DNA from: Terriglobales bacterium
GTDB taxonomy: Bacteria > Acidobacteriota > Terriglobia > Terriglobales > Acidobacteriaceae
DNA length: 64,000 nt
Assembly (NCBI GenBank): GCA_049520915.1
Contig: JBEKPH010000006.1
Span: 50,382 to 114,381, forward strand
Direction: 5' to 3'
Under the pieces are notes generated by a model. That model did no database searches and was not told the DNA's origin. It saw nothing but the letters and a program-made list of their open reading frames with translations. The translations under genes and the position numbers were made by a program. Positions within the stretch are counted from its first letter, which is position 1. Each line of letters begins with the position of its first letter. This document shows, piece by piece, positions 40,618 through 58,654 of this stretch.

Positions 40618-42282
40618 TTACGGCTTCTGTTTTTCTCCAGTAAGCGGATTCAAGAGCAACGTCCCATTCGCTCTGATTTTTTTGAAGTTAAACATCTGAG
40701 CGATGGAGCTTGAAATCGTATCGAATGAGCCCTGGCCAATGCGTTGTCCGCCCAGCCAATTGTCTTCGATGAAGTGGATGATCGACGTCTGGTCGGTCAC
40801 CGTATGGTCGACAAAGTTCTGCCGCGCCCACGGTGAAATAACCAACAGTGGCAACCTCGGACCGTAGCCGCAGCGGCCAAGTGCATGCGGATTTGCTGCC
40901 GGATTGTAGCCCGGCAGCGAGGTGGCGGCCGTGCCGCAAACGCCAGGTCCAGTCAGAGCATCGGCCGGTCCGGTTGAAGTATTGACGATCGGCGGCATTT
41001 GATGGTCGTACCATCCGTCGGAGTCGTCATACGCAATCACCACAGCGGTGTTGCTCCAAGTGGGCAGTCCTTCCAGAAAGTTGATCGTGTTGACCACGAA
41101 ATCCTGCTCGTCAATCGGGTCCGAGTATCCAGCGTGGCCATCCTGATAGGAAGGCGCCTTCAGGAAGCTGACCGCCGGCTGATTTCCCGCTGCCGCTGCC
41201 GCGTAAAATTCATTGATGTCGTACTGGTGATTCGCCGGACCTGCATTACCGACTTCAGCAATCGAATTCGGCAAAGTGTGGTTCGGGTTTGCGGTCGTCG
41301 CCCAATAAGCGAAGAACGAATGATGCGGTGTGTAATCGTTCTCCTTGACGCCCGTGATATTCGAAGTTGTGCTGCGGTTGCAGCCCGTGCTCCCGTTCGA
41401 GTTCACGACGGTAAGGTCGAATCCGCCCATGAAGCCTCCCCAGGTCACACCCGCGGCATTCAGCAGATCGCCGATATTCTGGCTTCCCATCTCTCCCTGT
41501 GCCCGTGACGGACTGGAGCAGATATCGCCCAGCGGATCGGCATCATTGATCAAGGTCAACGAACCATCCGGACCCCCCGCCACTTCATCTCCGGTCCCGT
41601 TCAAAGTTGCGATCACACCGTTCGTTTGTCCCGACACTAGATTGATTAGCCCGGGAGTCGAAGGCCCGAACGTCGTTCCAAAAGAGTTGTCGTTCATCGC
41701 GAAATGCTGAGCGTAATTCCAATAGCCAGTCACGGTATTCCCGTCGAAATATCCCATGACGAGACCGTTAGTATCCACGATTCCGCCCCCACCTGGCGGC
41801 GGACCGGCCGTGCCGGTGTAAAGTGGGAACAGGTCCATCAATCCGTTGTCGAACGCTTGCTGCTCGGGCGTGTAGCCATGATCCTGATCCGCCGTAGCCG
41901 CCTGGCCGACATCGAGGCGGAACGGATTCGTTGCGCCCGTGCCATTCGAGGGGTTCAAATTCGGGTTCGTGTTAATCAGCGCGTTGGTGAGTCCGTTGAC
42001 TGTTGGAGTATTCGCGACCGCCGTGAATTTATTTTCAAACTTCGGGTTCAGCGCATTGGGATAAGTTCCAAAGTAGTGATCGAAAGAGACATTCTCCTGG
42101 AAAATCACTACCAGATACTGAATCGGTGTCGCCGTGGCTGGCAAGGCCTTCACGGTTCTGGTTACCGGTTTAGCGGAAGAGGCGAAAGCGGGAACAACGC
42201 TCGGTCCCAGGGCAATGGTCATCGTCAATATTGACGCCATCACCCGCCTGAGGTTGGCAAAAGGTTGCTGCTGTTCAAACAT
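40618..42282 (-). CDS. Secreted phosphoesterase family protein (acid phosphatase AcpA / phospholipase C-like)
   Basis: Start ATG 42282 (GGAGA upstream; signal MFEQQQPFANLRRVMASILTMTIALGPSVVPAFA). IQYLVVIFQENVSFDHYFGTYPNA, HHSFFAYW and TAVVIAYDDSDGWYDH. Confidence 0.85.
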   Translation of the reverse strand: MFEQQQPFANLRRVMASILTMTIALGPSVVPAFASSAKPVTRTVKALPATATPIQYLVVIFQENVSFDHYFGTYPNALNPKFENKFTAVANTPTVNGLTNALINTNPNLNPSNGTGATNPFRLDVGQAATADQDHGYTPEQQAFDNGLMDLFPLYTGTAGPPPGGGGIVDTNGLVMGYFDGNTVTGYWNYAQHFAMNDNSFGTTFGPSTPGLINLVSGQTNGVIATLNGTGDEVAGGPDGSLTLINDADPLGDICSSPSRAQGEMGSQNIGDLLNAAGVTWGGFMGGFDLTVVNSNGSTGCNRSTTSNITGVKENDYTPHHSFFAYWATTANPNHTLPNSIAEVGNAGPANHQYDINEFYAAAAAGNQPAVSFLKAPSYQDGHAGYSDPIDEQDFVVNTINFLEGLPTWSNTAVVIAYDDSDGWYDHQMPPIVNTSTGPADALTGPGVCGTAATSLPGYNPAANPHALGRCGYGPRLPLLVISPWARQNFVDHTVTDQTSIIHFIEDNWLGGQRIGQGSFDTISSSIAQMFNFKKIRANGTLLLNPLTGEKQKP

Positions 42283-42456
42283 TGCTGAAATCTCCGTTCC
42301 TTCGAATTGCCTGGCCAGGGCGCAGAACTGTTGCGTGGCGGAAGCTTCGAGAACATTAGGCGGGCGATGTTTCTGTAACGTGACTGCAATATTAATGGGA
42401 GATGAATTCATGCCTGATTGCGGCGGACTGGAACAATCTTGCACACAAGGTGAGGA

Positions 42457-42564
42457 AAGCAAAACGTCTATGCCGCCACCAGAGCCGAGGTCTAGAACAG
42501 TTTCACCCTGATTCATCTTCGCGAGAGCACTGGTTAAGGCAAATTCGTCAACGGACGGCGGAGG
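42457..42564 (-). pseudogene. Fragment of a class I SAM-dependent (ArsM-like) methyltransferase, read through in-frame into the phosphoesterase ORF
   Basis: SVDEFALTSALAKMNQGETVLDLGSGGGIDVLLSS contains SAM motif I (VLDLGSGGG.D). Nothing methyltransferase-like follows it. Confidence 0.4.
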
Positions 42565-43105: not shown

Positions 43106-43189
43106 TGCCAGACATCCTCTAACTCGCTAATAGTTTTTATCGGATTAGAAGTCAACGCTGATGTGATGTCCTAGCGTCACTTCAGGCAA

Positions 43190-43350
43190 TGCTGCCGGAG
43201 TAGGGGTCTATGATGCCGAAGATCAGGCGGTCCCGGTTCCTACTGGACACCGTCGCATCCCAAACCTGATAGTCGATCGCCAAACCGCGAACCAGCGGAA
43301 CAACAGACTGGGCTCCAGTTCTTCCATCAGCAGCCGTTCGCTGCGTTTGG
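43190..43350 (-). mobile_element. IS5/IS1182-like transposase N-terminal (DUF772-type) remnant with a frameshift
   Basis: Minus strand reads RSERLLMEELEPSLLFRWFA, then, one frame over, GLAIDYQVWDATVSSRNRDRLIFG. This matches the conserved SER.L.EeL.yNLLFRWF.gl.iD..vwD.t.fSKNRdRLl block. No DDE domain follows. Confidence 0.5.
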
Positions 43351-43389
43351 CGCTATCAGATTTGGGCGGGGCTCCAAGAAAATGGCCGC

Positions 43390-45552
43390 TCATTTCCGCG
43401 TAAGCTTGCGCTTTTGAACCTCCTCAGATGTCGGACAATTTGTGGGAGGGACGGTAACTTGGCACTGTGTCGCGTAGTAGCCCAGCGTTACTTGCCCCGT
43501 CTGATACGGTCCGTTAACCAAGTCTGTCTCGACGAAGAAACCTTGATTCGAATCGATGGAGTAGTAATCCAACGAAATTGGATTCGTGAAAACGCTGGCG
43601 ATGGGTGCATTCGGATCGGCGTTCAGAGTTCCTGGCAAATTGTCGGATGTCGCAGTACCGAAGTTGCCGAGGAAGCCGTTTCCCAGTTGAGCGCTTGCGT
43701 CGGCGGTTCCCGAAAGAGGCGGCGTGTTGGCGGAGTTCACCGTCATCTGGGCCGTGCCGTCGGTTTCGATGCCATTTTCCTGCGTGAAACTCGCGCCGTA
43801 GAGGCCGCTGAAAGTTGGTGTGGCAGCGGTTTGCGCATAAGCAAGGCCCGATCCAATCCAGGGATAATGCAGGTTAGGAGAAGGCCCAACTGCTCCGAAG
43901 CCGAGCACCAGGGCCGCAGGCTGACCCGATCCGCTTAGGCCGGTCAGATAGAAGAACATTTGGGGACTATAGCTGGGACTTGGCACGGGACTAAAATCGG
44001 CCGGCGTAAGGCAGGCGCGGCCGGTTCCACTCACCACCGTTCCACTGTCGGCCCCGCAAGAGGCGCTGGCGGAATCGACCGCATAAATACCGGTAAATGC
44101 TGCACTGATCTCTGCTCCTTCGATTCCTCCAGTCTTGCAGCTTTCTTGCACGCAGTTGAGCTGAAGAAAGGTGTCGGTGAATCCGCTCGTCAGCGCTCCG
44201 TCGGCTTGACCATCGGCGGTGAATACACCGGCTGAAGTCAAAGTCGCCGGAACGAGATTGCTTTGGTAGAGGTCAACGCCTGTCACTCCGAACGTGTAAT
44301 TTCCTGATAGCGATCCATTGCCAAACGTACCGTAAGCGCCCGAGGCTTGGGCAATCGCGAGGCCACCGGTTGAGGCAAAGCCGCTCGTGGTCGCGGTGTT
44401 GTCGCTCTCAATTAGCTGTATATGGCCGGAGTCCACAATATAGCCCGTCAAGATGGCCGTCACTGGCTTAGAGTGGATGCCATCGAGATAACCAACCAGC
44501 TTGATTGTCACTTGGCCGAAGGCATCGGGTCCCGAAGTCACCTGCGAGCCCGTAGCGAACGAGCCATCGCTGATCTTCTGCTTTTCTCCGATGAACTCGT
44601 CGGTGACGCCGGAGATCGTGGTCTGTCCCGCCGCGATCTCCAAGACGCCTCCGAAAGCGAGCGCTTGGCTGTCGACTACATCTGTGCCGGTCATTGCGAA
44701 GGCGTAGCTACCCGACGGCGCTGCGACCGTAGTCTGTTGCAGATCCATGGTTCCGGTCGCGGAATAGCCGGTAGTATCCAATCCAATTTGCGAGACTAGC
44801 GCTTCGGGATTCTGCGAATTGTTGAGGAAGACGAAGCTGAAAATTTCTGTGCCTGCGTTGCTGCTGCTGTCACTCCAGTTCAGTGTGATCGTTCCGCGGC
44901 CGTCGCCGCCGAGAAAATAACTGCTCGTGTTCAGTAAGGTGGCGTTGTCGGAAACCCCACCTGAATTGGCAGTTTGCTCCCCGCCCGACACACCTCCTTG
45001 TCCATCGACGGCGATCACGCCCGCGAACTGATACGGCACAGAGAAGCCATCGACTCCCTGCAGTTGCAGTACATAGTTCCCCGCCTGCAAACTGCCATTG
45101 AAGCTACCAATCGTCAGCGGCGCCACTACGTTCACCGAAGGACTGTTCGTCGATAGCGCCACGATTTCAACCACCGTGCTATTTGTGGAGAGAGTAGCCG
45201 GTGCGGTGTAGGTGACCGGGCTTCCGCTGGCGGTATGCGGATTGCTCAGTGTGCCGCAGAGGCCGTTTTGATTCTTCGGATCTGCCTGGCAGGTCAACTC
45301 CCAGCTCACTCCGTCGTTGTCCGGATCGTTCGTAACGACAGCCGTCACATTTTCAGCAGATCCAACAGACAGCGCCGCTCCGGGCTCCGGTTGAAAGGCG
45401 ATCGTCACATTCTGCGGTGGGGGCGGTGGAGGGTTTTGCACGTTCGCGGTGCTTCCTCCGCATCCGGCAAGAAATGACATCATCGCCGCCGTCATAAGAA
45501 AAGGAACCCATCGTCGCATCACCACTGCCGCCCTCCTGAAATTGAGTCGCAT
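43390..45552 (-). CDS. Lipoprotein of unknown function (720 aa), last gene of the TBDR operon
   Basis: Lipobox FLAGC|GG. Poly-Pro linker. Ig-like module (VSWELTCQADPKNQNGLCGTLS...YTAP). Four G-x-Y-x-F/L...G-x-D internal repeats. Many paired Cys. Confidence 0.75.
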   Translation of the reverse strand: MRLNFRRAAVVMRRWVPFLMTAAMMSFLAGCGGSTANVQNPPPPPPQNVTIAFQPEPGAALSVGSAENVTAVVTNDPDNDGVSWELTCQADPKNQNGLCGTLSNPHTASGSPVTYTAPATLSTNSTVVEIVALSTNSPSVNVVAPLTIGSFNGSLQAGNYVLQLQGVDGFSVPYQFAGVIAVDGQGGVSGGEQTANSGGVSDNATLLNTSSYFLGGDGRGTITLNWSDSSSNAGTEIFSFVFLNNSQNPEALVSQIGLDTTGYSATGTMDLQQTTVAAPSGSYAFAMTGTDVVDSQALAFGGVLEIAAGQTTISGVTDEFIGEKQKISDGSFATGSQVTSGPDAFGQVTIKLVGYLDGIHSKPVTAILTGYIVDSGHIQLIESDNTATTSGFASTGGLAIAQASGAYGTFGNGSLSGNYTFGVTGVDLYQSNLVPATLTSAGVFTADGQADGALTSGFTDTFLQLNCVQESCKTGGIEGAEISAAFTGIYAVDSASASCGADSGTVVSGTGRACLTPADFSPVPSPSYSPQMFFYLTGLSGSGQPAALVLGFGAVGPSPNLHYPWIGSGLAYAQTAATPTFSGLYGASFTQENGIETDGTAQMTVNSANTPPLSGTADASAQLGNGFLGNFGTATSDNLPGTLNADPNAPIASVFTNPISLDYYSIDSNQGFFVETDLVNGPYQTGQVTLGYYATQCQVTVPPTNCPTSEEVQKRKLTRK

Positions 45553-45555
45553 CGT

Positions 45556-47862
45556 TTATTGTCCGGTCCCGCGCAGGTACACCACTTGCGGCAGGTTCAG
45601 CGGTTCCTGCTGATAATTGATCGTGAGCGTTCCGGGAATGAAGCCCGTGACACCGGGCTTGAAAGTAACCGTCAAGGTGCAACTGCTGCCCGGCGCCAGG
45701 CTGATCGGACAATCGTCGGACTCGGAATAACTGCCACTGGCGGTGATCTTTCCGATGAACGTGACCGTTTGGGTGGTCGCGAGATTCGGATCGTTGAGCA
45801 GCGTAATGGTCAAGGGTGCGGTGCTCTTCCCTTGTGTCTGATTCCCGAAGTCCAGTCCTGCCCCAGGCGTCATGCGCAAGGGACTCGCGGAATTCGAACG
45901 CAGTTCCACCGGAAACCGTCCGCTATCGATTTCGCAGTCGGTCGTGACTGCGCCCGCACACTGCAGGGTGTTCAGTTCGAGAAAATAATCCAGCCCGTTG
46001 CCCACATTGGTCTTCGGTTGTGGCACATAGGTAACCTGAATATTGCAGGACGCCTGCGCAGCCAACAGATTTCCGGTGCACGTGTCTTCAGAAATCTGAA
46101 AGTTTGGTAGCTTACTGCTGTCGTCACTGTCGCACGTGTAATTGATGGTCTCTCCGTTCGCCGTAATCGGAAGACTGCCCGATCCGTTGCTCACCACCTG
46201 CAATCCGGCGACTGGACTGTTTGCCAACAAGGGATGAGGGAGCAGGTTCTGCCCATGTTGCGGATTCACGCAAGTTGCCTGTCCCAGAATTTGCACCGGA
46301 GAGCCGCTCACATTCGTAAACGAGAGAGTCTGGGGCACACTCGCTTCCGGCGGATTCACTTGTTCTTCCGCTCCGAAATCGAGTTCTTGCACCGAAGGTT
46401 GAAGCGCGCTCCGCGCCACACCGGTCGCCGGCACCGTAAATGCGGTATCGGTGTCGGGACTAGAGGGACTATGGACCGTTACCAGCGCGCTCTGCGTGAG
46501 TGGACACCACTCGGGTGCGGCGCCCGCAATCGTCGGTGGCGCTCCGAACGGTAGCCACGGACAACTCTCTTGCGGCGTGAAGGTTACGGTGATCGCACAG
46601 GACTGCCCCACTGCGAGAGAAAAATTGGTGCCGAGTGACGCGGCACAGTTATCCTGCTCAGTAAAACTGGGCAGCTCATTGAAATCGCTTTGGCCACCAA
46701 ATGTATTGTCGCCCTCGTTACTAAAACTAAGAGTCAATGGACCAAGCGGTGCGCTGGTGTTGTTCGCGAGCGTGATTGTCTGCGAACTCGCGGCTGCGCC
46801 GAGCACCTGTGTCGGGAACGCCAGGAATGCCGGCGTTAGGGTAATTGGTGCTTGGCACGCGCTGCTACTTCCGACCGAAAGACAGATATTGCCAAAGTCG
46901 CCCGCTGTCGTCGTGCTCCCCAAACTGCCGCCGCAACCCTTCGACGCCACCAGATACGACGGCCCAATTCCGTGCAGGATATTGCCGCCCCCTTGCGCGG
47001 AATCGTAAGTCACCGGGCTCACTCCCGTAGCTCCCAGAAACTGCGCTCCTGCGGGCTCACCGATCTGCCCGAGATTCGATCCGTCCGTGCCAATTACTTG
47101 GAGGATCACCGAGTCACCGCTAATTGTTCCTGTGAGCGATGCCAGAGGAAAGCAAGGATAGTCGCTCAACAGAGTCACGGGATCCTGAAAACTCAAAGTC
47201 CCAGTCACAGTCGCGTTGCTGGCGCCGATATTTTCGCCTTGGGTCACAGTACCTGCAACTAAGGCGAAATCCTGATTCGCCAATCCGTAACTACCGCCTG
47301 TACTGTGAAATGTTCCCTGAATCGTCCCTGTAAGTGGCGGCACCGAAACCGCGCTCCATGACAATCCGGTTTCGGCATACCCGCAAACCGAACCGTCAGA
47401 CGCCGTTCCCGCAGTCGAGGTGTAAGTTCCCGCCATCGTCGAGCCATCCGAGCTCAACGTTCCGGTTAAAACAAAACTCTGGCTACCGGCCGCCGCGTTG
47501 ATCGTCACGGTCTGCCCACTGTTCGTTACTGATAGCGGAGCCGATCCGCCGTTGCATGGACCCGGCGCCGAAGCGGACGAAGTAATCGAGTACACCGCTT
47601 GTCCCGCCGTCGCGCCGTTTTGCGTCAGCAGAAATCCTCCTTGCAGGCCACCGCTGAAGGTCGGATCGCCCGCATTTCCATCGCTCTGCGAGGCCATCGT
47701 GAACTGCCAATTCCCCGAGAGCGAGGCGCCTTGTTGTGATCCGCCAGAAGAGCCTCTCCCGCCGCAGGCCGAAAACGTCAGCATCAGCGCCAGGGAGAAA
47801 AGCGGCAAGAGGCACGCGTTCGTGGCGCACCGCGATTTTCGGTGTTTAGTAAATCTCAGCAT
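45556..47862 (-). CDS. Lipoprotein of unknown function (768 aa); N-terminal ~400 aa paralogous to the upstream gene, C-terminal ASH/choice-of-anchor-D-like domains
   Basis: Start ATG 47862 (MLRFTKHRKSRCATNACLLPLFSLALMLTFSAC|GG). LSGNWQFTMA..., GTIQGTFHS, GDFGNICL, ACQAPITL. C-terminal LDFGNQTQGKSTAPLTITLLN...CTLTVTFKP. Confidence 0.75.
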   Translation of the reverse strand: MLRFTKHRKSRCATNACLLPLFSLALMLTFSACGGRGSSGGSQQGASLSGNWQFTMASQSDGNAGDPTFSGGLQGGFLLTQNGATAGQAVYSITSSASAPGPCNGGSAPLSVTNSGQTVTINAAAGSQSFVLTGTLSSDGSTMAGTYTSTAGTASDGSVCGYAETGLSWSAVSVPPLTGTIQGTFHSTGGSYGLANQDFALVAGTVTQGENIGASNATVTGTLSFQDPVTLLSDYPCFPLASLTGTISGDSVILQVIGTDGSNLGQIGEPAGAQFLGATGVSPVTYDSAQGGGNILHGIGPSYLVASKGCGGSLGSTTTAGDFGNICLSVGSSSACQAPITLTPAFLAFPTQVLGAAASSQTITLANNTSAPLGPLTLSFSNEGDNTFGGQSDFNELPSFTEQDNCAASLGTNFSLAVGQSCAITVTFTPQESCPWLPFGAPPTIAGAAPEWCPLTQSALVTVHSPSSPDTDTAFTVPATGVARSALQPSVQELDFGAEEQVNPPEASVPQTLSFTNVSGSPVQILGQATCVNPQHGQNLLPHPLLANSPVAGLQVVSNGSGSLPITANGETINYTCDSDDSSKLPNFQISEDTCTGNLLAAQASCNIQVTYVPQPKTNVGNGLDYFLELNTLQCAGAVTTDCEIDSGRFPVELRSNSASPLRMTPGAGLDFGNQTQGKSTAPLTITLLNDPNLATTQTVTFIGKITASGSYSESDDCPISLAPGSSCTLTVTFKPGVTGFIPGTLTINYQQEPLNLPQVVYLRGTGQ

Positions 47863-49351
47863 GGTGCTCCGCATCCCCGTAATTAACATCGTTGCCTGCA
47901 TTCATCTCCGCACCAAAATCGAATGCGCGACCCAAAACAGCGTCGCCGCCGGATGCCGTGCCACTAATCGGAACCGAAAAAATCATTTCGCTATTGGGAT
48001 CAGTAACGAGCAGGGTCGCTGTCAGAGGCGCTGGACAGTTCCCCGGCGGCGTTCCCGGTGCGCAGATTTCAAGCGGCTGGAAGGTAACGCTGACGGCGCA
48101 GAATTGCCCTACGATCATCTGGAAGGGCTGCCCTCCCGACGGCAAGCCGTTCGCGCCGCAAGTGTCGGTCTCCGTAAAATTGAGCGCACCGCTATTGTTC
48201 GTTAGATTTAACGTCAAGTTCAGCGACGACGCGGAGCTATCGGTCAAGGTAATTACCTGCGTCGTTGCTGGCGCCCCGATCATTTGCGAAGAGAAGGTCA
48301 GATACGACGGAGCCAGAGTTATCGGCTCTTGGCAGGCGCTCGCTCCATTTAACGCAAGACAGATATTCCCGAAATCTCCGGAGACGGTTGTGCTGCTTAA
48401 GCTGCCCGGGCATGCGGTCGTCACGACCAAGTAAGACGGCCCGGCCCCCTGTAACACATAGCCCCCGCTCACGGATTGCAGGATCACAGGACTTATGCCC
48501 GTGCCGCCCAAGGAACCAAAGGGTTCGCCGATAAAGCCCCACTCGGTTCCGTCAGCTCCCACAAGTTGTAACGTCGTCAAGTTCCCACTAACTTGACCGG
48601 TTACGGAAGCACTCGCGAAGCAAGGATAGACACTCTTATTCGTCAGCACATTTACAAAACTCAAATTGCCGGATACGGCGGCGCTACTGGCGCCTGTGTT
48701 ATCTGCTTGGTTGAGTGCGCCCGATACCAGAAATTCCTGTTCATTCAGCCCCGCCGCCCCGCCCGCACTGTGAAACGTTCCTTGGATCGAACCCTCAAGC
48801 GGTGGCACAAAAATGGCGCTCCATTGCAGACCCGTCTGCGCGGTTCCGCACGGAGAGCCGTTGCCAGCCGTTCCCGCAGTCGAGTCATACGTCCCCGACA
48901 TCGACAAGCCATCCAGGCTCAACGTTCCTGACAGTGTGAAGGTTTGCGTTCCAGCGATCGCGGTGAGGCTCACCGCCTGATTCTCGAGAGTTCCGGTAAT
49001 CGGAGCAGAGCCGGTGCTGCACGGAACCAACAGGTTCGTCAGGGAGACTGCGTAGTTTGCGGATCCTTGTACAGCGCCCCTCGTTTGCAGAAGAAATCCG
49101 CCCTCGAGTCCGCCCAAAAATGAGCCATCGGAGGGAGGCGCCATCGTGAACTGCCAGTTGCCGGCTAGCGACAGATCCGGGGTGGGGTTCGAGTTGCTAC
49201 CGCCTCCACATGACGACAGCATCATCGTGCTCGCAACCAACACAACAAACAAACACACGTCGAGAAGTAAGGTCACGAAGGCGAGTCCGCGACTCCCGCT
49301 GCACTGCGTCCGTCTTTTATTCGTAGTCTCCATCACGTTGAACGAGGGCAT
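47846..49351 (-). CDS. Lipoprotein of unknown function (501 aa)
   Basis: ATG 49351 lies one nt after the receptor stop (alternative ATG 49333, METTNKRR). Lipobox MLSSC|GGG. LAGNWQFTMA, GSIQGTFHS, GDFGNICL, ACQEPITL. Confidence 0.75.
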   Translation of the reverse strand: MPSFNVMETTNKRRTQCSGSRGLAFVTLLLDVCLFVVLVASTMMLSSCGGGSNSNPTPDLSLAGNWQFTMAPPSDGSFLGGLEGGFLLQTRGAVQGSANYAVSLTNLLVPCSTGSAPITGTLENQAVSLTAIAGTQTFTLSGTLSLDGLSMSGTYDSTAGTAGNGSPCGTAQTGLQWSAIFVPPLEGSIQGTFHSAGGAAGLNEQEFLVSGALNQADNTGASSAAVSGNLSFVNVLTNKSVYPCFASASVTGQVSGNLTTLQLVGADGTEWGFIGEPFGSLGGTGISPVILQSVSGGYVLQGAGPSYLVVTTACPGSLSSTTVSGDFGNICLALNGASACQEPITLAPSYLTFSSQMIGAPATTQVITLTDSSASSLNLTLNLTNNSGALNFTETDTCGANGLPSGGQPFQMIVGQFCAVSVTFQPLEICAPGTPPGNCPAPLTATLLVTDPNSEMIFSVPISGTASGGDAVLGRAFDFGAEMNAGNDVNYGDAEHHAEIY

Positions 49352-49352
49352 C

Positions 49353-52300
49353 CTAGAAAGCCAACTTCAAACCAAACTGAATCGTGCGCGGGCGATGCGC
49401 GTCGAGCGGATGCAAGAAAGACGCTCCCGTAACGCAATCGCCACCGGAGCCGGCGCCGCCGCCACCTTTGAATCCCGCCGAATTCTGCGGACCGGCGTAG
49501 CAACTCACGATGTTGTTTCCGCTGCTGCCCGGGTTATCCGGATCGTAGACACGGAACTGGGTATGGTTGAGAACGTTAAAAGCTTCCGCGCGGAATTCCA
49601 GGACGCCCGATTCCCGTATCTTGAAATGCTTCAGCAAAGCCACATCGAAATTCAGCCGGCCCGGATTATTTAGGTAATTCCGTCCGGCATCTCCGAAGGT
49701 GAGCCCGCGGGGCGCAACGAACTGCGAAGGATTCGTAAGCAGCGGTCCGAAACTCGCTGCATTGTTCAGAGGCGCCGGCAGTCCCTTGGCGATGTCCGGA
49801 TACGATGCGGCTACACCGAGACCACTGGAAACTCCAGCATTGTCCGTCAGAGAAATTCCGGTGTTACCGGCACTGTTAATCACCGTATACGGCGTACCCG
49901 ACTGCATCAGCGTCACGCCCGAGAGTTCCCATCCGTCTAGAAACTTATTTGCAAGATCGGAGCAGCAGTGGGACTTGATCGAGTCGGGATCACTCGGCGT
50001 TCTCTCGTTGCCCCAGTCTGTGAAGCGCTTCGGAAAATCCTTGAGCGGAAGCTGATACACATAGCTGACGTTAAGCAAGTGCCGTTCGTCGAAATTCGAG
50101 CTGGCCTTGTTCTCCCGCAGATCGTAAGAATTCACCAGCACAGGATCGCTGCGATCCGAGGCATCGTCGATCGAGTGGCTGTAGGAATACGAAAGGCCAA
50201 CCGTGAGCGGCCCGCTTGTGCGTCGGATCGTGGTCTGCAGCGCGTGATAATTCGAATCTGCGACATTTTGTAACGACAACACCCGGCCCAAGCCTGGATA
50301 AGGCCGGCCGGGGAGAGAGTTCACGTTCGGAATATTTGGATTCGTACATGCCGCCTGCAAATGAACGTACGCTGGATTTTGCGGAGTAACCTGTGTGCCA
50401 TTCTGCAAAAGAAACGCCGTTGTCCCGTCGCCCGGAACTCCGCTTGCCCCCGGGGCTGCCACCGTGCACTCGGTAATCGTCAACGGCTCGTTCGGACCAA
50501 ACGGATTCTCATTAATCGGCAGAGGCGCTAGTTGGTTCAACTGACGTTCTACCGTCAGATGCGTCCCCTTGCTTCCGACGTACGCCAGATTGAGCACGAT
50601 GTTACTGCGCAATTCGCGCTGCACGCCGAAACTCCACTGCTGCGCGTAGGGCCACACGGCCTTGGTTGGAATGGATGTAACGTCGAGAGGAAAAACGGAT
50701 CCGCTCAGCGGCGCCGATCCACCGACTGGACTGTCGCAGCCGCTGTTCGACGGGTCGAAGGCCGCGCCATATCCAACGTTGCCGATGCAGGTGTAATTCA
50801 GCGGAAGCGGCTGTGTCATGCTGAGCACCGCGGGCGCGCTCGCCTCAAGCGATCCCGTATTGGCTTCGTTCCCGGTACCGTGTTCGAAGAAGATGCCGTA
50901 CCCGCCGCGGATTGAAGTCTTGCCGTCTCCAAAAGGATCCCAGGCAAAACCAACTCGCGGCGCCGGATTGAACAGATGACCTTTCATGCAGCTCGCGGGC
51001 GTTCCATCGAAGCCGCAGCGCACTAATCCCAAGTCGCTCACCACTCCGGGATCAATCTGGTACGTGACCGGATTAAACGGCACGGGCGTTGAGCCCGCGC
51101 TCTGGTCGAGCAGTTCTCCATAGATTGGATCGACCGCGAATCGTGTCGCGTTGAAGCGCGAGGCTTCCCAGTTCCATGCGTTGCGGTTTTTTTCGCTATA
51201 CGTTCCAAACAGACTTACTCGCACTCCCAGGTTCACGGTAAGTCGGGACGTAACCTTCCAGTCATCCTGAAAATAAGGCTCGGCGATCTGGTACCGCTGA
51301 TAATACCGGTGATTTGCCGAATCTTGAGTGAAGCTCTGGATAAAGCCGGCGGGTACGCCCCTAGGGTTGGCATCCGACTCCACCAGAAAGTCTGCAAAGG
51401 CATTTCCCGTGCTGTGTGCCAGATTGCTGTAAGTTAGAAGCCCTTGTAAGTCGCCGGACGCCGCACCGATCGCGTTATTATCCTGGTTGCGCTGCGAGTA
51501 GACGTACTGCGCTCCAAACTGCAATGTGTGTCTACCCAGCGCCTTGGCTATGTCATCTCTCGCGGCGTACGTGGGATTTGTGTGTCCCCACGGCATATAT
51601 GAAGGATCGGCCGCAAACCCTCTTCCGCCATAGGCCGCGTTCGTCCCCAGGAAGTTTAGTCCTGGCATCTTGCCACCAAAACCGTTGTTGAAGATGTGGC
51701 CAATAGCGCATTGCGGAAAGCCAGTCGCAGGATCGACACTCAGCGCCGGGTTGCATTGGCCTGGAGACGATGGATCAGTTACGAGCGGCTGGTCGAGCGT
51801 CGGATTCCGCTGAAACTGCGCGCCACCCGGGCCATTCTGGTCGGCCAATGTGATGCTGGAATTCACGTAGCTGACCACGATATCGTTCAAGAGAGTCGGT
51901 GAGATCGTGTGCGTGAAGCGCGCCACCAGGCTTGTGCCCGGCCCGAAGAATCGATTCTGAATGGTCGGAAATGTATCCCGGACCACTCCCCACTGCGGCG
52001 TCAGAACCGAGGTATCCCAGGCATCGTGAACATAACGAAATGAAGTTTTGAACTTATCGTTGAAGACGTGGTCAATCTTAAATAATTCCTCGCGCCAGTA
52101 AGTAGAAGGAGAAACGCTGGTGTTGTAGCAACGGTTCGGATCGGTCGGGTCGGGTGCGGCCGGATTGAAATTAGTGACTTTGAAGTTGCAACCGAAGGGC
52201 GCATTGGGCAACGGGATCAGATTCGAGTTCAATATCGCCAGTGCGTTCTTGTCCACAGAATAATGAGATTCAGCGCCTGGCTGCCCAACCTGTTCCAAAT

Positions 52301-53918
52301 GGTTGCTGTTAATCGTAACCGGACCAGCGCTTGTCTGGATTCCCGGGCAGTCCGGGAACAGCGAACGGAGAAAGGTGGAGCCTCCGCCGCCCAACGGGCA
52401 TACGTCACTAAAGTCGAAGTCCCGAAAAACGACACCGGTAGAACTGGTTTGCAGATTCTGCTGCACCCCGTTCGCAGTCAGAATCAGACCGCGTTCTTTT
52501 AAGCCGGGAACCGCCTGGTTATACTCTACCGGCGTCTTCTCTAGCCGAAATTCTTCGGAATAAAAGAAGAAGGTCTTATCTTTCCTAGTGTCGAAAACCC
52601 TCGGAATGTAGAGTGGCCCTCCGATCGTTCCACCAAAATCATGCCGCCGATATAACGGCGCCTTGTCACCAAACGTCTGACCCGGAGTAGTCGAGCCCGG
52701 CGCCGGCGGGGCCTGGTAGACGACATCGAAGAAATTGCGGGAATTAAACGCCTCGTTACGTATGAATTCGTAAAGATTTCCGTGGAACTTAGGAGTTCCC
52801 GACTTCGTGGTCACCTGTACCGTCCCCGATGCGGTGCGCCCGAACTGAGCGCCGTAATTCGAAGTTAAGACTTTTACTTCTTGAATCGCATCAAGGCTTG
52901 GATAGACCATCAGCGTGGCAGCCGCTCCGTTTAGCCCGGTATTCAACACGTCGCCGCCGTCGACTTCAAAGGTGTTGTACTCGACCCGTCCTCCGTTCAC
53001 GCTGTACTTAACGCTGCCTACGACTCCAACCTTCGCTTCATCTTGCCCGGTCTGATTGCTGACACCGGGAGCAAGCGCTATCAACTGCGTGAAGTTACGG
53101 CCGTTGAGTCCGATCGAGACCACTTCTTTTTGCGTGATCGTGCCAGAGACGCTGGCGCTCTCTGTCTCCACTTTGTCGACGCCGCCTTCTTCGACATTGA
53201 CCTCAGTTTTCGCGCTCTCGGGTTCCAGAGGAGCGTCCAAAGCCAGCTCCAAGCCGGCGGTCAGGGCAACATTGTCAAACACTTTCGGCGCAAACTCAGG
53301 AGCAGTTACAGTTAGGGTATAAGTTCCGGGCGCGAGATCGGTGAATGAGTAAACGCCTTTGGCGTCAACTGTCATTTCGCGTTTCTCGCTTGCGGGACCT
53401 GTCAACACGGCCTTCGCGGCCGTTACAACCGCGCCGCTTTGGTCAGTCGCCGTTCCGCTGATCGCGGCTTTATCTCCGGCGATTTTCTTCGTAGCAGGCG
53501 CGGCGGTCCGTTGCGCTTGCTCCGCACCTACCTCGACTGCCGGCGTGGCGCTGGCCGTTTCCATGACTGCGTCTAGCGTCAATTTCTTACCCGCCGTTAA
53601 GGTGAAGTTTTCGAAGACGGTATCAGCGAAATTCCCAACCGAAACTGTCAACGTGTAGATCCCTGGATTGAGCCCTGTGACTGAGTAAGCGCCATCGTCG
53701 TTGACCGCAACACTGAGGGTTGCTCCAAAAGAACTCGTGAGCACAGCCTTCGCATCGTGTAGGACAGCGCCGCTTTTGTCCGTTACCTTCCCGGTGACGA
53801 TGGCCTTATCCGACACGGCGCCCATCTGCTCCTGCGCGACGCCGACCCCAAGCCCCGTCAACATCAGCGCCAGGGCGCAGAAGGTCCGAATAGACCAAGA
53901 TGAAACGCAGAACCGCAC
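49353..53918 (-). CDS. TonB-dependent receptor-like outer membrane protein with two N-terminal carboxypeptidase-regulatory-like domains
   Basis: Start chosen at GTG 53918 (GGAG 8 nt upstream; signal RFCVSSWSIRTFCALALMLTGLGVGVAQ). Two copies of the GKVTDKSGAVL / GTATDQSGAVV...Y.LTV module. Plug motifs LNGRNFTQLIALAPGV, SVNGGRVEYNTFEVDG and TKSGTPKFHG. C-terminal ...RTIQFGLKLAF. Confidence 0.85.
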   Translation of the reverse strand: MRFCVSSWSIRTFCALALMLTGLGVGVAQEQMGAVSDKAIVTGKVTDKSGAVLHDAKAVLTSSFGATLSVAVNDDGAYSVTGLNPGIYTLTVSVGNFADTVFENFTLTAGKKLTLDAVMETASATPAVEVGAEQAQRTAAPATKKIAGDKAAISGTATDQSGAVVTAAKAVLTGPASEKREMTVDAKGVYSFTDLAPGTYTLTVTAPEFAPKVFDNVALTAGLELALDAPLEPESAKTEVNVEEGGVDKVETESASVSGTITQKEVVSIGLNGRNFTQLIALAPGVSNQTGQDEAKVGVVGSVKYSVNGGRVEYNTFEVDGGDVLNTGLNGAAATLMVYPSLDAIQEVKVLTSNYGAQFGRTASGTVQVTTKSGTPKFHGNLYEFIRNEAFNSRNFFDVVYQAPPAPGSTTPGQTFGDKAPLYRRHDFGGTIGGPLYIPRVFDTRKDKTFFFYSEEFRLEKTPVEYNQAVPGLKERGLILTANGVQQNLQTSSTGVVFRDFDFSDVCPLGGGGSTFLRSLFPDCPGIQTSAGPVTINSNHLEQVGQPGAESHYSVDKNALAILNSNLIPLPNAPFGCNFKVTNFNPAAPDPTDPNRCYNTSVSPSTYWREELFKIDHVFNDKFKTSFRYVHDAWDTSVLTPQWGVVRDTFPTIQNRFFGPGTSLVARFTHTISPTLLNDIVVSYVNSSITLADQNGPGGAQFQRNPTLDQPLVTDPSSPGQCNPALSVDPATGFPQCAIGHIFNNGFGGKMPGLNFLGTNAAYGGRGFAADPSYMPWGHTNPTYAARDDIAKALGRHTLQFGAQYVYSQRNQDNNAIGAASGDLQGLLTYSNLAHSTGNAFADFLVESDANPRGVPAGFIQSFTQDSANHRYYQRYQIAEPYFQDDWKVTSRLTVNLGVRVSLFGTYSEKNRNAWNWEASRFNATRFAVDPIYGELLDQSAGSTPVPFNPVTYQIDPGVVSDLGLVRCGFDGTPASCMKGHLFNPAPRVGFAWDPFGDGKTSIRGGYGIFFEHGTGNEANTGSLEASAPAVLSMTQPLPLNYTCIGNVGYGAAFDPSNSGCDSPVGGSAPLSGSVFPLDVTSIPTKAVWPYAQQWSFGVQRELRSNIVLNLAYVGSKGTHLTVERQLNQLAPLPINENPFGPNEPLTITECTVAAPGASGVPGDGTTAFLLQNGTQVTPQNPAYVHLQAACTNPNIPNVNSLPGRPYPGLGRVLSLQNVADSNYHALQTTIRRTSGPLTVGLSYSYSHSIDDASDRSDPVLVNSYDLRENKASSNFDERHLLNVSYVYQLPLKDFPKRFTDWGNERTPSDPDSIKSHCCSDLANKFLDGWELSGVTLMQSGTPYTVINSAGNTGISLTDNAGVSSGLGVAASYPDIAKGLPAPLNNAASFGPLLTNPSQFVAPRGLTFGDAGRNYLNNPGRLNFDVALLKHFKIRESGVLEFRAEAFNVLNHTQFRVYDPDNPGSSGNNIVSCYAGPQNSAGFKGGGGAGSGGDCVTGASFLHPLDAHRPRTIQFGLKLAF

Positions 53919-54492
53919 ACTTATGACTCCGGAATAAGTTGTCTTGAAAGGATGTAAAGGCAAGCCGGGATTGTATATGGGCGATTCGAGCGTCGAAGAT
54001 TAAAAGACTGTGAATTGTGCTTCGCTTGTGAGACGAGCAGCTTGTAACATTGGGTTCATAAGTCTTCCCAGCCCCTGTAACACTGCATTCACATTTCCTG
54101 TCCATTGCGGTCGGCCCTACGAGCTGATATCGGGGGTATACGAAGAACGCATGCTGACTCCTTGCGTCTAAGTCGCAGAAGATTACTCTGTACGGTTGGC
54201 CCAACTGAAGCTTCGATCTCACCATCTTATCGTTCAAGCAACTTTCACTAACTTGTCACAAAACCTTAACATCGCCAGACAAACGAACGGCTAGACTTCG
54301 GGCTGCAATTCAAGCTTCGCTGCGGTGGGTTGCGGATCGCTCGTCAACTACACCGCAGCACAATTCACTCAATTAACAAGGCCGTGAACGAACCGATGTG
54401 GCGGTGCGTAAGGGCGGGTTTTCATGCGTGTGGCGAATGCCCCATGTTCAGAACAACGTTTCACAAACCTATTACGAGAGGGATCAAAAGTT

Positions 54493-56304
54493 ATGTCGCG
54501 TATGAAATCAATTTTCGCTGGACTGTTGCTGACCGCGATCGTGTCCGTTGTGCCCATGGCACAGGCTGCGACCACAGTTGAAGTGACGATTGCGGGATCA
54601 TCGGCCATGTGGCAGACGATGGCTCTGGGCGCTTACAAGGCGGCCGGTGCGGGCGCCGGACACTGGACGAGCGCTTCCAATGCCATCAACCTGACCGACT
54701 CGCGTGTTACCCCCGTCAACGTCGACGCCGGCACTGTCTGGATCGTCTGGAATTCTACTGCTACCAAGGTATGGTCCTTCGACAAGGTTGACTCCGTCGT
54801 CGGAGATCGCTGCTACTTCGCTCAGCCGCAGTGCAGCGTGAACGCTACGTTGGCCAATCTCTCGGGCAGCGGTTCCAATCAGATTGCGTCCAACCTCTGG
54901 GGTGATGGCTCTTCGGACTCGGCTCTCCCCTCGAACGTTCAGTCGCTCTTCACCAACGGAACTCCCGTCACTGTTGCTGCAACCGATATTCGTCCGGAAG
55001 ACGCAGCCTTCGCAGTATGTCGCGTGAACTCTCTGCTAGGCGCGGGATCGTTTGGCGGCGGATCGAGCGACGGTCTCGACGGTCTCGGATACAACTCCAA
55101 CATCGCCGCGGGCGTCTGCCCTGGCGTGTTTGGCCAGGCGGGTGGTCTCGGATCGACGTCCGACTATGTTGGAAACCCGATCAAGAGCGGTTACCCAGGC
55201 AGCACTTCCACGGCAAACGTTCTATCATTCAATATCAAAGGTAAGGACCCCATCAGCGGCACGACTATTCCAGCCTTCACGGTTGTGGAAGTGGGCGCGA
55301 CACCAATCGTATTCATCACCGAACGCGACAAAGGACAATTGGCGAACCTCACCAACGCCACTGAGCAGGAATTGCAACAGGTTTTTTCAGGCAATAACTG
55401 CGATGCAAGCGCCTTTGGTTTGCCCTCGGGCGGCATCGGCGTTTTCCTGCGCGAACCCCTGTCGGGCACGTACAACACGACGGAAGCCACGGTCATGCGT
55501 CATGCCGCGGTTTATCCTGGCGCGATTCTTGGCGTGAGCATGGAAACGAATGTCGGCGCCAATAATCCTCTGGCCGGCCAGTCTTCGGCTTGCCCGGGAA
55601 CTTCCGGAAAGCGGTATCGTGCGATCGGTACCGGCGAGGAAGTGAAATCCGTTCAAAATTCCGGCGTAAACCTCGGCAGCGATGGAATCGGTTATACCTT
55701 CTTCAGTTACGGTAACGTAGGGTCGATCGCTAACAAGCCCGCCTATGGCTACATCACGCTGAACAACGTGGATCCAATCTTCGCCAGCTACGGACCGCAG
55801 GCTTCTACCGGCCTCGGATACGACCCCGGTGAGCCCGCCAGCGCAGGCACCCTGCCGGCCGCTGCCAACCTGCCTTGCAGTGGTGCATTCCCCTGCTCCG
55901 AGAAACTGATCTGGGCGGGCGGACTTTCCTTCCCGAACCTCCGCAACGGAACCTATCCGTCGTGGTCAATCGTGCGCCTGGTAAGCAACGGAACCGCGTT
56001 GGCGAATGCTAAGACTCTGGTTAAGGACTCACAAGCATTTGTTGTTGACTCAGTTCCCGACTATGTACCAGCCACCAAGACGGTCGGAACAACTACGACT
56101 GATCCTGGTCTGTTGTTGGTCCGCTCGCACTATCAGCAATATGATGGTGCCGACACCCTTTTGGGCGCGGCTCCTGTGAACAGCGGGACAACGGAAGCTG
56201 GCGGCGACATGGGCGGAACGATTCTCGTGTGCCCGACGCTTACCACTTGCCCCAAAACCACCCAGCAGGTTCAGGGTAACCAAGGTCTTCAGGTTCGACA
56301 GTAG
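54493..56304 (+). CDS. Secreted PstS/PBP-like (type 2 periplasmic binding fold) protein, unusually long (603 aa)
   Basis: ATG 54493 (GAGAGGGA upstream; signal MSRMKSIFAGLLLTAIVSVVPMAQA). The mature N-terminus TTVEVTIAGSSAMWQTMA resembles the PstS-family start (I.gaGSs). The rest is Gly/Ser-rich and not classifiable by eye. Confidence 0.55.
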   Translation: MSRMKSIFAGLLLTAIVSVVPMAQAATTVEVTIAGSSAMWQTMALGAYKAAGAGAGHWTSASNAINLTDSRVTPVNVDAGTVWIVWNSTATKVWSFDKVDSVVGDRCYFAQPQCSVNATLANLSGSGSNQIASNLWGDGSSDSALPSNVQSLFTNGTPVTVAATDIRPEDAAFAVCRVNSLLGAGSFGGGSSDGLDGLGYNSNIAAGVCPGVFGQAGGLGSTSDYVGNPIKSGYPGSTSTANVLSFNIKGKDPISGTTIPAFTVVEVGATPIVFITERDKGQLANLTNATEQELQQVFSGNNCDASAFGLPSGGIGVFLREPLSGTYNTTEATVMRHAAVYPGAILGVSMETNVGANNPLAGQSSACPGTSGKRYRAIGTGEEVKSVQNSGVNLGSDGIGYTFFSYGNVGSIANKPAYGYITLNNVDPIFASYGPQASTGLGYDPGEPASAGTLPAAANLPCSGAFPCSEKLIWAGGLSFPNLRNGTYPSWSIVRLVSNGTALANAKTLVKDSQAFVVDSVPDYVPATKTVGTTTTDPGLLLVRSHYQQYDGADTLLGAAPVNSGTTEAGGDMGGTILVCPTLTTCPKTTQQVQGNQGLQVRQ

Positions 56305-56333: not shown

Positions 56334-56367
56334 GAAAGGCGGACCTGCAAGGGTCCGCCTCTTTCTT
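56334..56367 (+). terminator. Rho-independent terminator
   Basis: aggcggacc-tgcaag-ggtccgcct followed by ctttctt, 30 nt after the stop at 56304. Confidence 0.6.
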
Positions 56368-56507: not shown

Positions 56508-57509
56508 ATGTCCAATATTGTTTTTCATTTTCCATTCGGGGCCATATCCAAATCCATAAAGGCGCTCATTCTGATAAGCACAGCTCTTTTGACTGTTTCT
56601 ATCAGCGCTGCTCAACTCTTGCCGGCGCCTTCGCCGCTAGCCAACTCTTCCGATGCCCGCTTTAACGATGTCCATGAGGATTGGACCTCGCCCGCTCTCG
56701 CCGATACGCACCTTGTTCCGATCCAACCGCTTCTCGGGCTTATCGATGATAAGCCGCGATACACCGTCGAGTTGCTGCAAGTCCAATGGCGGCGAGGCGA
56801 TCCTATCGACCTGTACGTCATGAAGCCGAAGGGAGTCAAGAAGCCGCCGGTCATCCTATATCTCTACGGCTATCCGTCAACCACCGACATTTTCAGGAAC
56901 GACGCTTACGAAGATCTCGTAACGAAGAATGGCTTTGCCGCTGTTGGCTTCGTTTCCGCGCTCACCGGACATCGTTACCACGACCGTCCCCTGAAGCAGT
57001 GGTTTCTGAGTGAGCTTCAGGAGTCGCTCGCCACCTCCGCCCATGACGTACAGATGGTGTTGAACTATCTCGCATCTCGCGACGATCTCGACATGGATCG
57101 CATCGGCATGTTCGCCACCGGTTCGGGAGCCAGCATTGCCATCCTTACATCGGCCGTCGATCCCCGCATCAAGGTGCTCGAAGCCCTCGACCCGTGGAGC
57201 GACTGGCCCACATGGTTGGCCACTTCCCCATTCGTTCCCGAGGACGAACGGGCGCAGTACGTGACGCCCGATTTCCTGAAAAGAGTAGCGCCGCTCGACC
57301 CTTTAGAATGGTTGCCGAAAGTTCAGGCGAAGAAATTTCGTCTGGACGATGAGCTTTACGGTCGAGACACTCCCAACCCAGCCAAAGAGCGCTTACGGGC
57401 CGCTGTTCCCGATGGCGCCCGGGTAGTGGTCTACAACACGCCTAACGAATTCAAAGCAGCTTTCGCCGACGGCAAAAACCTGGAGTGGATTCAACACCAA
57501 CTCCAGTCG
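56508..57509 (+). CDS. Secreted alpha/beta hydrolase (dienelactone hydrolase / acetyl-xylan-esterase-like); the ORF lacks its own stop and runs into the integrase remnant
   Basis: Signal MSNIVFHFPFGAISKSIKALILISTALLTVSISAAQ. PPVILYLYGYP, the nucleophile elbow RIGMFATGSGASIA, then ...NLEWIQHQLQS. The track ORF continues to 58481. Confidence 0.65.
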
Positions 57510-57536
57510 CGTTCACTACCGGCAGCGACGACGAGC

Positions 57537-58654
57537 TGGGTGCTGCGTTACCCGATTACAGCTTCGGACGGAAGAAGAGTGGAAAACATCATGCAAGTGG
57601 GTCTCGTTCGGGATCTCCCGAAGGAAAAAGACGCATGGCGTGAAGTGGACAAGCTCGGACTGTCCGTCAAAATCAACGGAGATCCCTGTTTCGGTCGCAT
57701 TCGGTTTAGCTCTCTGGCGGAACATTACTTGAAGGCCGATTTCGGCGCAGATGCTGTGCGGCCGAAATCGGTAAACACCATCCCCATCGTTGAGCATTAC
57801 GTCCGTGATTACCTCATCAAGAGATTCGGTGAAAATATCGCGGAGGACATCAAACCACTTGAAATTCAGAAGTGGCTGAAATCCCTCAACGAAACCAACG
57901 GGCTTGCCTGGCCGACGATTGCGAAGATACGGGGCCTCATGCTCCGCATCTACAAGATCCGCCTCCGTCACGAACACGTCGCGAAGAATCCCGTGCTGCA
58001 CGTCGAGACGCGTTCCAAGTCCACTTACCGGGCGATCATCATCACCCCGGCCCAAACGCTGACCATACTCAAATCTCTCGTCTCCCCGCTTCACTACACA
58101 TTAGTGCTCACCTGTGCGGCGACCGCGCTGCGGTCGTCGGAGACTCTGGCGCTACGCTGGGCGGACGTGCTGTGGAGTGAAGGAAAGATTAGGGTATCGA
58201 AGCGCTGGGCCAAGGGCGAAGACGGAGAAACGAAAACCAATGCGCCGGACGGCTACGTCCCGCTGCATCCGGTCCTCGCGGGGCATCTTCTCGCGTGGCA
58301 AAGACAGACACCGCATGCGAAGGCAACCGACTTCATGTTTCCGTCGATGAGAGCAGGGGAAGGAAACCACTCTGCTCCTCCGTATTCGTCGCCGACCATT
58401 TGCGACCTGCCGCGAAGAAAGCTGGAGTACACATCGAGGACGGGCCACGGTTCGGTCTTCACAACTCGCGTCACAGCTTAAGCAACTGGCTGGTGAACAT
58501 GGCGAAAGTCGAACCTAAGACCGTGCAGGGACTCTTGCGTCACAGCAAGATTCAAACGACCCTCGATCTGCACACTCAGGAGGACAGCGACGAGACACGG
58601 GCGGCGCAGGGTGAATTCCTGACAGCCGTGGGGATGAATGTAACGGTACAGTAG
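57537..58654 (+). pseudogene. Tyrosine recombinase (phage-type integrase) remnant: no own start, one frameshift, catalytic Tyr replaced by His
   Basis: WVLRYPITASDGRR..., CAATALRSSETLALRW (Arg I). The frame switches near 58355-58366 (track ORFs 56508..58481 and 58295..58654). GLHNSRHS (H-x-x-R). LLRHSKIQTTLDLHTQ has CAC (58571-58573) where the family has the nucleophilic Tyr. Confidence 0.75.

Follow-up and report, generated by a model that had tools for sequence, protein, structure and literature searches.

What does a large outer-membrane transporter take up when lipoprotein genes are packed directly behind its own gene and a gene for an oversized PstS-like protein reads away from it on the opposite strand? 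The question is raised by a 64,000-nucleotide (nt) stretch of contig JBEKPH010000006.1 from a Terriglobales bacterium, which was analysed over its full length and is called the window here. The genes at issue, in window coordinates, are these:

49353..53918, minus strand: R, a TonB-dependent-transporter-like outer-membrane protein of 1,521 amino acids (aa)
47846..49351, minus strand: L1, a 501-aa lipoprotein with lipobox LSSC-GGG
45556..47862, minus strand: L2, a lipoprotein of about 768 aa with lipobox FSAC-GG
43390..45552, minus strand: L3, a 720-aa lipoprotein with lipobox LAGC-GG
54493..56304, plus strand: the PstS-like gene, encoding a secreted protein of 603 aa, divergent from R
56508..57539, plus strand: an alpha/beta-hydrolase-like gene downstream of the PstS-like one, encoding a secreted protein of about 340 aa

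We read this cluster as a Terriglobia-specific module, conserved and co-regulated, that captures nutrients at the outer membrane, with phosphorus uptake as its predicted function. This is a composite reading, drawn from sequence, and we put its probability at roughly one half.

Gene order and conservation

A scan of one genome per GTDB species gave 141 relatives; the best 80 of the 141 loci, together with metagenome contigs, made up the 84 loci with which the window proteins were compared by tblastn. Those best 80 of 141 all lie in metagenome-assembled genomes (MAGs) of Acidobacteriaceae, Terriglobales, Candidatus (Ca.) Sulfotelmatobacter or Ca. Acidoferrum. The order was the same in essentially every untruncated locus, with the PstS-like and hydrolase genes running one way and R, an optional L1, L2 and L3 running the other. 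The neighbourhood that the original prediction had postulated is therefore real, since R-L2-L3 and the divergent PstS-like gene are syntenic in essentially all untruncated loci of the 80 species. L3 was present in 84 of 84 loci, R in 82, the PstS-like gene in 78 and the hydrolase gene in 66, and the shortfalls in the last three arise largely because loci are cut at a contig end; the alpha/beta-hydrolase-like gene is a further conserved member of the module. Because the N-terminal domain common to L1 and L2 is duplicated in 45 of 81 loci and single in the other 36, we take the core to be R, L2 and L3, with L1 optional.

Mean identity to the window proteins was 74% for R, 66% for the hydrolase, 63% for the PstS-like protein (81% in one locus, L001), 57% for L2 and 46% for L3, a gradient that fits exposed, fast-evolving lipoproteins beside a constrained barrel. 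Relatives of L2, L3 and the PstS-like protein numbered 891, 496 and 1,724, respectively; all those with a name belong to MAGs of Terriglobales or Korobacteraceae, where their annotation is hypothetical or choice-of-anchor D. The PstS-like family is restricted to Terriglobia and annotated "hypothetical", and, as far as these sequence searches reach, the lipoprotein, PstS-like and hydrolase families as a whole carry no curated family annotation and are confined to Terriglobia.

The genes on the minus strand are almost without spacing. The R stop codon TAG (49355-49353) is separated by 1 nt from the L1 start ATG at 49351; the L1 stop TAA (47848-47846) falls within the 5' end of L2, giving an overlapping junction; and the L2 stop TAA (45558-45556) is followed by "acg" and then the L3 start ATG at 45552. 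The most likely start codon of R is GTG 53918, which has GGAG upstream and yields the 1,521 residues, and that of L2 is ATG 47862, with GGAG 4 nt upstream and an alternative start at 47874. The start of the PstS-like gene, ATG 54493, is backed by a conserved ribosome-binding site (RBS), GAGAGGGA, and by homologue alignment. When the open reading frames (ORFs) and junction coordinates were re-read, they matched the earlier description of four close-packed minus-strand genes and a divergent gene for a 603-aa PstS-like protein. No strong terminator-like hairpin was found across R to L3.

The transporter and its lipoproteins

In Pfam, R matches the OMP_b-brl_4 barrel (PF25183, E = 1.4e-144; 484 bits, cut-off 30) over residues 385-1477 and CarboxypepD_reg (PF13620, 1.9e-29) in two N-terminal stretches. 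A signal peptide precedes these, and the last residue is Phe. We found no SusC/RagA match in NCBIfam, where the sole match of R was a spurious one to PqqU at 16 bits; a TonB box was not identified in the R sequence, and a phmmer search of R against PDB gave nothing useful. By its barrel family and N-terminal extension, R is an Oar/OMP_b-brl_4-type TonB-dependent transporter (TBDT).

The likeness to Oar bears on the direction of transport. Oar of Myxococcus xanthus is needed for PopC to be secreted, and a CarboxypepD_reg N-terminal extension occurs in 28% of TBDTs (PMC6434023). R, likewise a TBDT with such an extension (a likeness of architecture only), might thus act outward, exporting or displaying the co-encoded lipoproteins or else the PstS-like and hydrolase proteins. 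It would suit such a role that Oar serves protein secretion (PMC6434023), that no Slam-like or other lipoprotein exporter lies within the cluster, and that the tether of L3, described below, is conserved in the manner of a sorting signal. However, the Oar substrate is neither co-encoded nor a lipoprotein, and Oar has one extension domain and no co-encoded lipoproteins, whereas R has two such domains, about 1,500 aa and a lipoprotein operon. Tight pairing of TBDT and lipoprotein genes is a hallmark of import systems (SusCD, PusCD, TbpAB, BtuBG), and the presence of hydrolases and of a binding protein of periplasmic type is in keeping with import and processing. We consider an outward-acting R quite improbable and continue to treat it as a transporter for uptake.

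The lipoboxes that had been read in all three downstream proteins are present, and the lipobox Cys is invariant among 80-85 homologues each of L2 and L3. The most informative of the three is L3. Its AlphaFold (AF2) model has a mean predicted local distance difference test (pLDDT) score of 85 and a predicted template modelling score of 0.81, and consists of a disordered tether, an immunoglobulin (Ig)-like domain and four beta modules of 7-9 strands. A Foldseek search of the model against PDB placed TbpB on top (E = 9e-5, probability 0.98); 4 of 5 PDB matches at E<1e-3 are TbpB, TbpA-TbpB complexes included, and hemophilin appears further down. The modules are duplicated internally as [M1-M2][M3-M4], with hhalign probabilities of 95% for M1 against M3 (E = 3e-8) and 61% for M2 against M4 (E = 8e-5), and this duplication corresponds to the two-lobe plan of TbpB, a resemblance that is structural only. 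Structure prediction thus gives L3 the form of a TbpB-like bilobed lipoprotein, in keeping with the surface-binding role first proposed for it. Residues 1-40 of L3 have pLDDT <50, and the tether is Pro-rich. The stretch that follows the lipobox Cys, CGGSTANVQNPPPPPP (residues 31-46; 45460-45420, minus strand), is at least 90% conserved, as against about 46% identity in the mature part, and might serve as a signal for sorting or docking. In L2, by comparison, conservation of the tether stops at CGG.

L1 and L2 are paralogues, with 49% identity across 456 aa (E = 4e-118), and L1 is an optional duplicate of L2. Both have two all-beta modules with no family assignment (about residues 54-335 of L2), after which L1 has one Ig-like choice-of-anchor-D/ASH domain and L2 has three. 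In L2 these domains match NCBIfam NF012200 (choice-of-anchor D) in two stretches, at 62.6 bits against a cut-off of 45 (4.3e-17), and the Cep192_D4/ASH Ig-like family in a Pfam scan; its first and third Ig domains match each other at an hhalign probability of 97.5%. The AF2 model of L2 (pLDDT 79) gave a fold search dominated by Ig domains, the matches being ASH/hydin Ig arrays, and the protein has many invariant Cys residues. No match was found for L1 in Pfam or NCBIfam, or for L3 itself in NCBIfam. The earlier statement that the lipoproteins carry no recognisable enzymatic or SusD/RagB-like motif is thus correct as regards SusD-type proteins, and it has to be supplemented for L2, which does have a recognisable domain, choice-of-anchor-D/ASH Ig (NF012200). 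They still stand outside characterised families, since L1 and L3 lack any Pfam or NCBIfam match and L2 has generic Ig-type domains only. Homology of L3 to L2, or of the L2 N-terminal modules to the L3 modules, was considered and rejected, as profile-profile comparisons show none.

Domains of the L2 C-terminal type also occur elsewhere in the window: the gene at 11190-13196 (plus strand) encodes a second PF04185 phosphoesterase domain fused to ASH/choice-of-anchor-D Ig domains, which suggests that this genome uses such domains to display extracellular phosphoesterases. The beta module of L3, whose profile matches 2,453 representative clusters, is likewise found outside the cluster, in up to 16 copies in giant proteins of as many as 3,542 aa (P0361, P0363, P0364, P0369; L085 8001-10904). 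In four large L3-module proteins that were scanned, no Pfam domain was found, and P0398 (967 aa) lies in a locus with FG-GAP proteins instead of a TBDT.

These wider occurrences bear on whether the lipoproteins hand a substrate over at all. They could be adhesins or envelope structural proteins that are merely co-transcribed with R; the C-terminal domains of L2 are of the generic choice-of-anchor-D/ASH Ig kind, and L3-type modules occur in repeat proteins of 1,000-3,500 aa in other contexts. Against such a role, the R-L2-L3 order is invariant in 80 species and the genes are closely coupled, promoter elements are common to this unit and the binding-protein gene (see below), and L3 has a bilobed TbpB-like organisation. 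We give it little credence and retain substrate capture by the lipoproteins as the preferred reading.

Promoter repeats, the PstS-like protein and the cargo

Comparison of 40 intergenic regions between the PstS-like gene and R (349-860 nt long) revealed conserved elements, which lie in the window as follows:

54242..54272, plus strand: operator/promoter element of the PstS-like gene, made up of three direct repeats phased at 11 bp, CTTTCAC-taac-TTGTCAC-aaaa-CCTTAAC
53998..54016, minus strand: upstream element of R, AATTCACA-gtc-TTTTAATC
53967..53979, minus strand: CATATACAATCCC block with -10-like TACAAT, lying about 50 nt upstream of the start codon of R, found by k-mer conservation and alignment
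54426..54447, plus strand: leader hairpin of the PstS-like gene, GCGTGTGGC-N5-GCCCCATGT, found by RNAalifold

The first element overlaps a -10-like TAACAT and is present in 38 of the 40 regions at a fixed distance of 215-230 nt from the start codon, with the sense consensus GGAATTTTCAC-cAAC-TTGTCAC-AgAG-CCTTAAC-AT. The second, present in 35 of 40 loci about 95 nt upstream of R, has the family consensus TTTTCACA-ttc-CTTTAACC (in an extended reading, AATTTTCACA-ttc-CTTTAACC-ttg), and the CATATACAATCCC block follows about 20 nt downstream of it. Both elements use the same half-sites (TTTTCAC/TTGTCAC/yTTTAAC) at 11-bp spacing and with the same orientation with respect to transcription. When tandem half-sites were sought by strict criteria in 1.7 Mb of DNA from the loci, 63 pairs turned up, all of them in the intergenic region between the PstS-like gene and R, against 0.1 in shuffles; further copies sought in the window yielded the known site alone, with none upstream of the phosphoesterase gene described below.

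From the repeats common to both promoters we infer that the two units are co-regulated by one winged-helix regulator. The E. coli Pho box has the half-site CTGTCAT (PMC4415409), and the cyanobacterial one is built from three or more 8-bp repeats, CTTAACCT, joined by 3-bp linkers (PMC1906773); the layout of our elements (8 bp plus a 3-bp linker; TTGTCAC, CTTTAACC) matches both published forms. The repeats are thus plausibly the operator of a PhoB-type response regulator, with PhoB itself as the candidate, and we found no account in the literature of Pho boxes in Acidobacteria. The leader hairpin, about 50 nt upstream of the RBS, has 8 pairs, 3 of them with double changes, and many G-U/G-C alternations, which suggest an RNA rather than a DNA element. 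A riboswitch in this leader was considered and dropped, since an Rfam search of the divergent intergenic region, hairpin included, was empty and RNAalifold of the 285-nt leader gave one small hairpin only.

The PstS-like protein is some 300 aa larger than PstS. A single-sequence phmmer search of it against PDB gave nothing useful; a 47-sequence profile matched Sll0540 (8e-6) and 1twy, a PstS-family protein (3e-3). In these alignments its LREPLSGT falls on the phosphate-binding motif R..SGT (RpseSGT in Sll0540, ReasSGT in 1twy) and its N-terminal IAGSS on the ISGST of PstS-family structures, and a T-D motif is aligned as well. G35, S36, E321, S324 and G325 are invariant, and R320 and T326 nearly so. 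Judged by these alignments, the protein keeps the R-x3-S-G-T anion motif within a type II binding-protein core.

For the hydrolase encoded downstream (residues 1-340, signal peptide included), a profile matched a lipase (1e-3) and an acetyl xylan esterase (9e-3) in PDB, and there is a weak AXE1 match. In the window, the gene lies within a longer ORF, 56508..58481 (plus strand), which continues in frame from the hydrolase into a truncated tyrosine recombinase (Phage_integrase and XerA, both weak) with a frame-decayed C-terminus. Hydrolase homologues end at 327-346 aa, and the fusion looks like the scar of an element integrated at the 3' end of the gene.

Two genes downstream of L3 complete the picture:

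40618..42282, minus strand: PF04185 phosphoesterase with signal peptide, an accessory cluster member
38871..40505, minus strand: multicopper oxidase with Cu-oxidase_2/_3 matches, the usual companion of the phosphoesterase

The former has a strong match to PF04185 (5e-72 in Pfam; phospholipase C/acid phosphatase family) and falls under the NCBIfam cut-offs for PC-PLC and AcpA. It adjoins the module in the window and about 9 related loci in three arrangements, namely downstream of L3 (the window, L029, L052), downstream of the hydrolase gene (L001, L048, L065) and in an inverted block (L002, L012), with the multicopper oxidase side by side with it in 6 of 9 loci and in the window. Its linkage is thus recurrent but facultative. 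Strong terminator-like hairpins lie 3' of the PstS-like gene (56337-56360, plus strand) and of the phosphoesterase gene (40594-40559, minus strand); given these upstream hairpins, the hydrolase and multicopper oxidase genes may in part be separately transcribed.

Between L3 and the phosphoesterase gene, the window has about 1.1 kb of gene debris (42283-43389, minus strand), comprising what is left of an IS5-type transposase, now frameshifted (DUF772, 1.6e-9, 43221-43303), and a fragment from the C-terminus of an Old Yellow Enzyme (42548-43105). An N-terminal fragment resembling an S-adenosylmethionine (SAM) methyltransferase (42516-42440) is fused to the mechanical phosphoesterase ORF. In L029 and L052, the distance from L3 to the phosphoesterase gene is 120-760 nt. 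The rest of the 64-kb window includes three Ser/Thr protein kinases, of which two are about 1,030 aa long and carry TPR repeats, and one FHA-domain protein (kinase and FHA coordinates 17445-20546, minus strand; 32061-33851, plus strand; 58943-62020, minus strand; 28154-28954, minus strand), as well as an RND efflux operon at 1577-7659.

The hint of phosphorus in the original prediction is strengthened because Pho-box-like repeats stand in both promoters, the R..SGT motif is retained and the PF04185 adjacency recurs. We conclude that the cargo of the surface-capture and uptake module is probably phosphorus. The same architecture of TBDT and surface lipoproteins could instead serve another cargo, such as a metal or its chelate, a protein, or a polymer from plants or humic matter, with the PstS-like protein binding a different anion or acting as a periplasmic chaperone. 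In favour of this, the closest folds to L3, TbpB and hemophilin, serve iron and haem uptake, the multicopper oxidase travels with the phosphoesterase, the PstS-like assignment is under curated thresholds, and phased repeats could suit any OmpR-type regulator. Yet the best PDB relatives of the PstS-like protein, which keeps R..SGT, are all phosphate binders, and the half-sites are like published Pho boxes (PMC1906773) and not like Fur-type palindromes; the PF04185 adjacency, which recurs, also speaks for phosphorus. On this evidence, we regard a cargo other than phosphorus as unlikely.

Several points weigh against a phosphorus-uptake module as proposed here. The original prediction had given the 1,521-aa receptor two CarboxypepD_reg domains and a plug; Pfam bears out the two domains but the plug (PF07715) is sub-threshold, at 17.3 bits against a cut-off of 23.9, and the sequence holds the plug-like motif LNGRNFTQLIALAPGV. 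The global template modelling (TM) scores of L3 against TbpB are low (0.16-0.21), as is expected for flexible multi-domain proteins; L3 and ten divergent homologues matched no Pfam family, with no TbpB model among the matches; and the occurrence of L3-type modules in the giant repeat proteins, which have no TBDT nearby, shows that the fold is not confined to co-receptors. The PstS-like assignment holds as regards the retained anion-binding motifs and falls short in the curated models, with PF12849 (PBP_like_2) at 19.6 bits against a cut-off of 27 and TIGR02136 at 15.4 against 206.6, and hhalign of its profile with E. coli PstS was not significant, with one short plausible segment. No inner-membrane transporter, TonB/ExbBD or Slam-like gene was found in the cluster, and only about 10% of loci have the phosphoesterase next to the module. 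Finally, phased repeats of a similar kind are used by members of the OmpR family besides PhoB.

If phosphorus is the cargo, the module could work as follows. Both units would be switched on, most likely under phosphate limitation, by a PhoB/SphR-type winged-helix response regulator bound to the repeats. The lipoproteins, on long tethers at the cell surface, would then capture phosphorus-bearing material, e.g., organic phosphoesters, phospholipid head groups or particle-bound phosphate, with L3 as a TbpB-like bilobed binder and L1/L2 as Ig-stalked binders, and hand it to R, through which TonB energy would drive it into the periplasm. There the hydrolase, with the PF04185 phosphoesterase where present, would free phosphate or a phosphorylated moiety, and the PstS-like protein would bind the product for an inner-membrane transporter encoded elsewhere.

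Known systems and significance

The design of a TBDT with a cognate surface lipoprotein is known from SusCD/PusCD, TbpAB, HpuAB and BtuBG. The closest functional precedent for the Terriglobia module, by analogy, is PusCD of Flavobacterium, whose TBDT-lipoprotein complexes are more abundant under inorganic phosphate (Pi) limitation and are encoded with periplasmic phospholipases C (bioRxiv 10.64898/2026.09.03.749221); they import organophosphorus and phosphoinositol compounds (bioRxiv 10.64898/2026.09.03.749221; PMC8115612). Like PusCD/SusCD, the present cluster has a TBDT with a CarboxypepD_reg extension, lipoprotein genes directly downstream and secreted or periplasmic phosphoesterases. Unlike them, it has no SusD/RagB-like protein (L1-L3 gave no such Pfam or NCBIfam match), the barrel of R belongs to OMP_b-brl_4 and gave no SusC/RagA match in NCBIfam, R has two N-terminal extension domains rather than one, and the cluster, from another phylum, has a PstS-like partner and lacks a pair of extracytoplasmic function (ECF) sigma and anti-sigma factors. 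That an Acidobacteria-type genome might hold an analogous but non-homologous TBDT-lipoprotein module, as was first proposed, is supported by the lack of a SusD-type match together with the synteny kept across 80 species.

With TbpA/TbpB, and also with HpuAB and hemophilin systems, the cluster has in common a lipidated, tethered, all-beta protein, bilobed by internal duplication and encoded beside a TBDT. L3 has no sequence homology to TbpB and a low global TM score, and it differs further by one additional Ig domain and by its four similar modules. Here the TBDT gene comes first, the reverse of the TbpB-TbpA order, a Slam translocon was not found among the cluster genes, and the bacteria concerned live freely in soil, where there is no host protein to serve as ligand. 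The PstS-like protein, for its part, has the type II core and the N-terminal G-S-S, T-D and R-x3-S-G-T motifs of PstS/PBP_like_2 proteins, from which it differs in being twice the size, in falling under the Pfam and TIGR thresholds and in having no pstCAB linkage.

Acidobacteriota encode very many Oar-type TonB transporters, and they are dominant in acidic soils and peatlands, habitats short of phosphorus in which most of the element is organic or bound to minerals. In the literature, we found no TBDT-lipoprotein system described in Acidobacteriota and no Oar-type transporter there with partner lipoproteins. The cluster is, on comparative sequence evidence, well supported as a conserved module, and its proposed link to phosphorus is testable. 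Widely conserved, in 80 or more uncultured species from soil and peat, it is a candidate for a first complex of TBDT and lipoproteins in Acidobacteriota, and comes with defined protein families (about 500 to 2,500 members), a predicted operator and a testable ligand hypothesis. We offer more tentatively, as possible though doubtful in its full extent, the idea that Terriglobia independently invented a phosphate-starvation-controlled machine, made of TbpB-like and Ig-stalked lipoproteins, an Oar-type transporter, a giant PstS-like receptor and esterases, which would be a third, non-homologous solution of the SusCD/PusCD-TbpAB kind and a major route for phosphorus in peat and acid soils. If true, the design of a TBDT plus surface lipoproteins would have evolved convergently with new folds, and a missing step would be added to models of soil phosphorus cycling.

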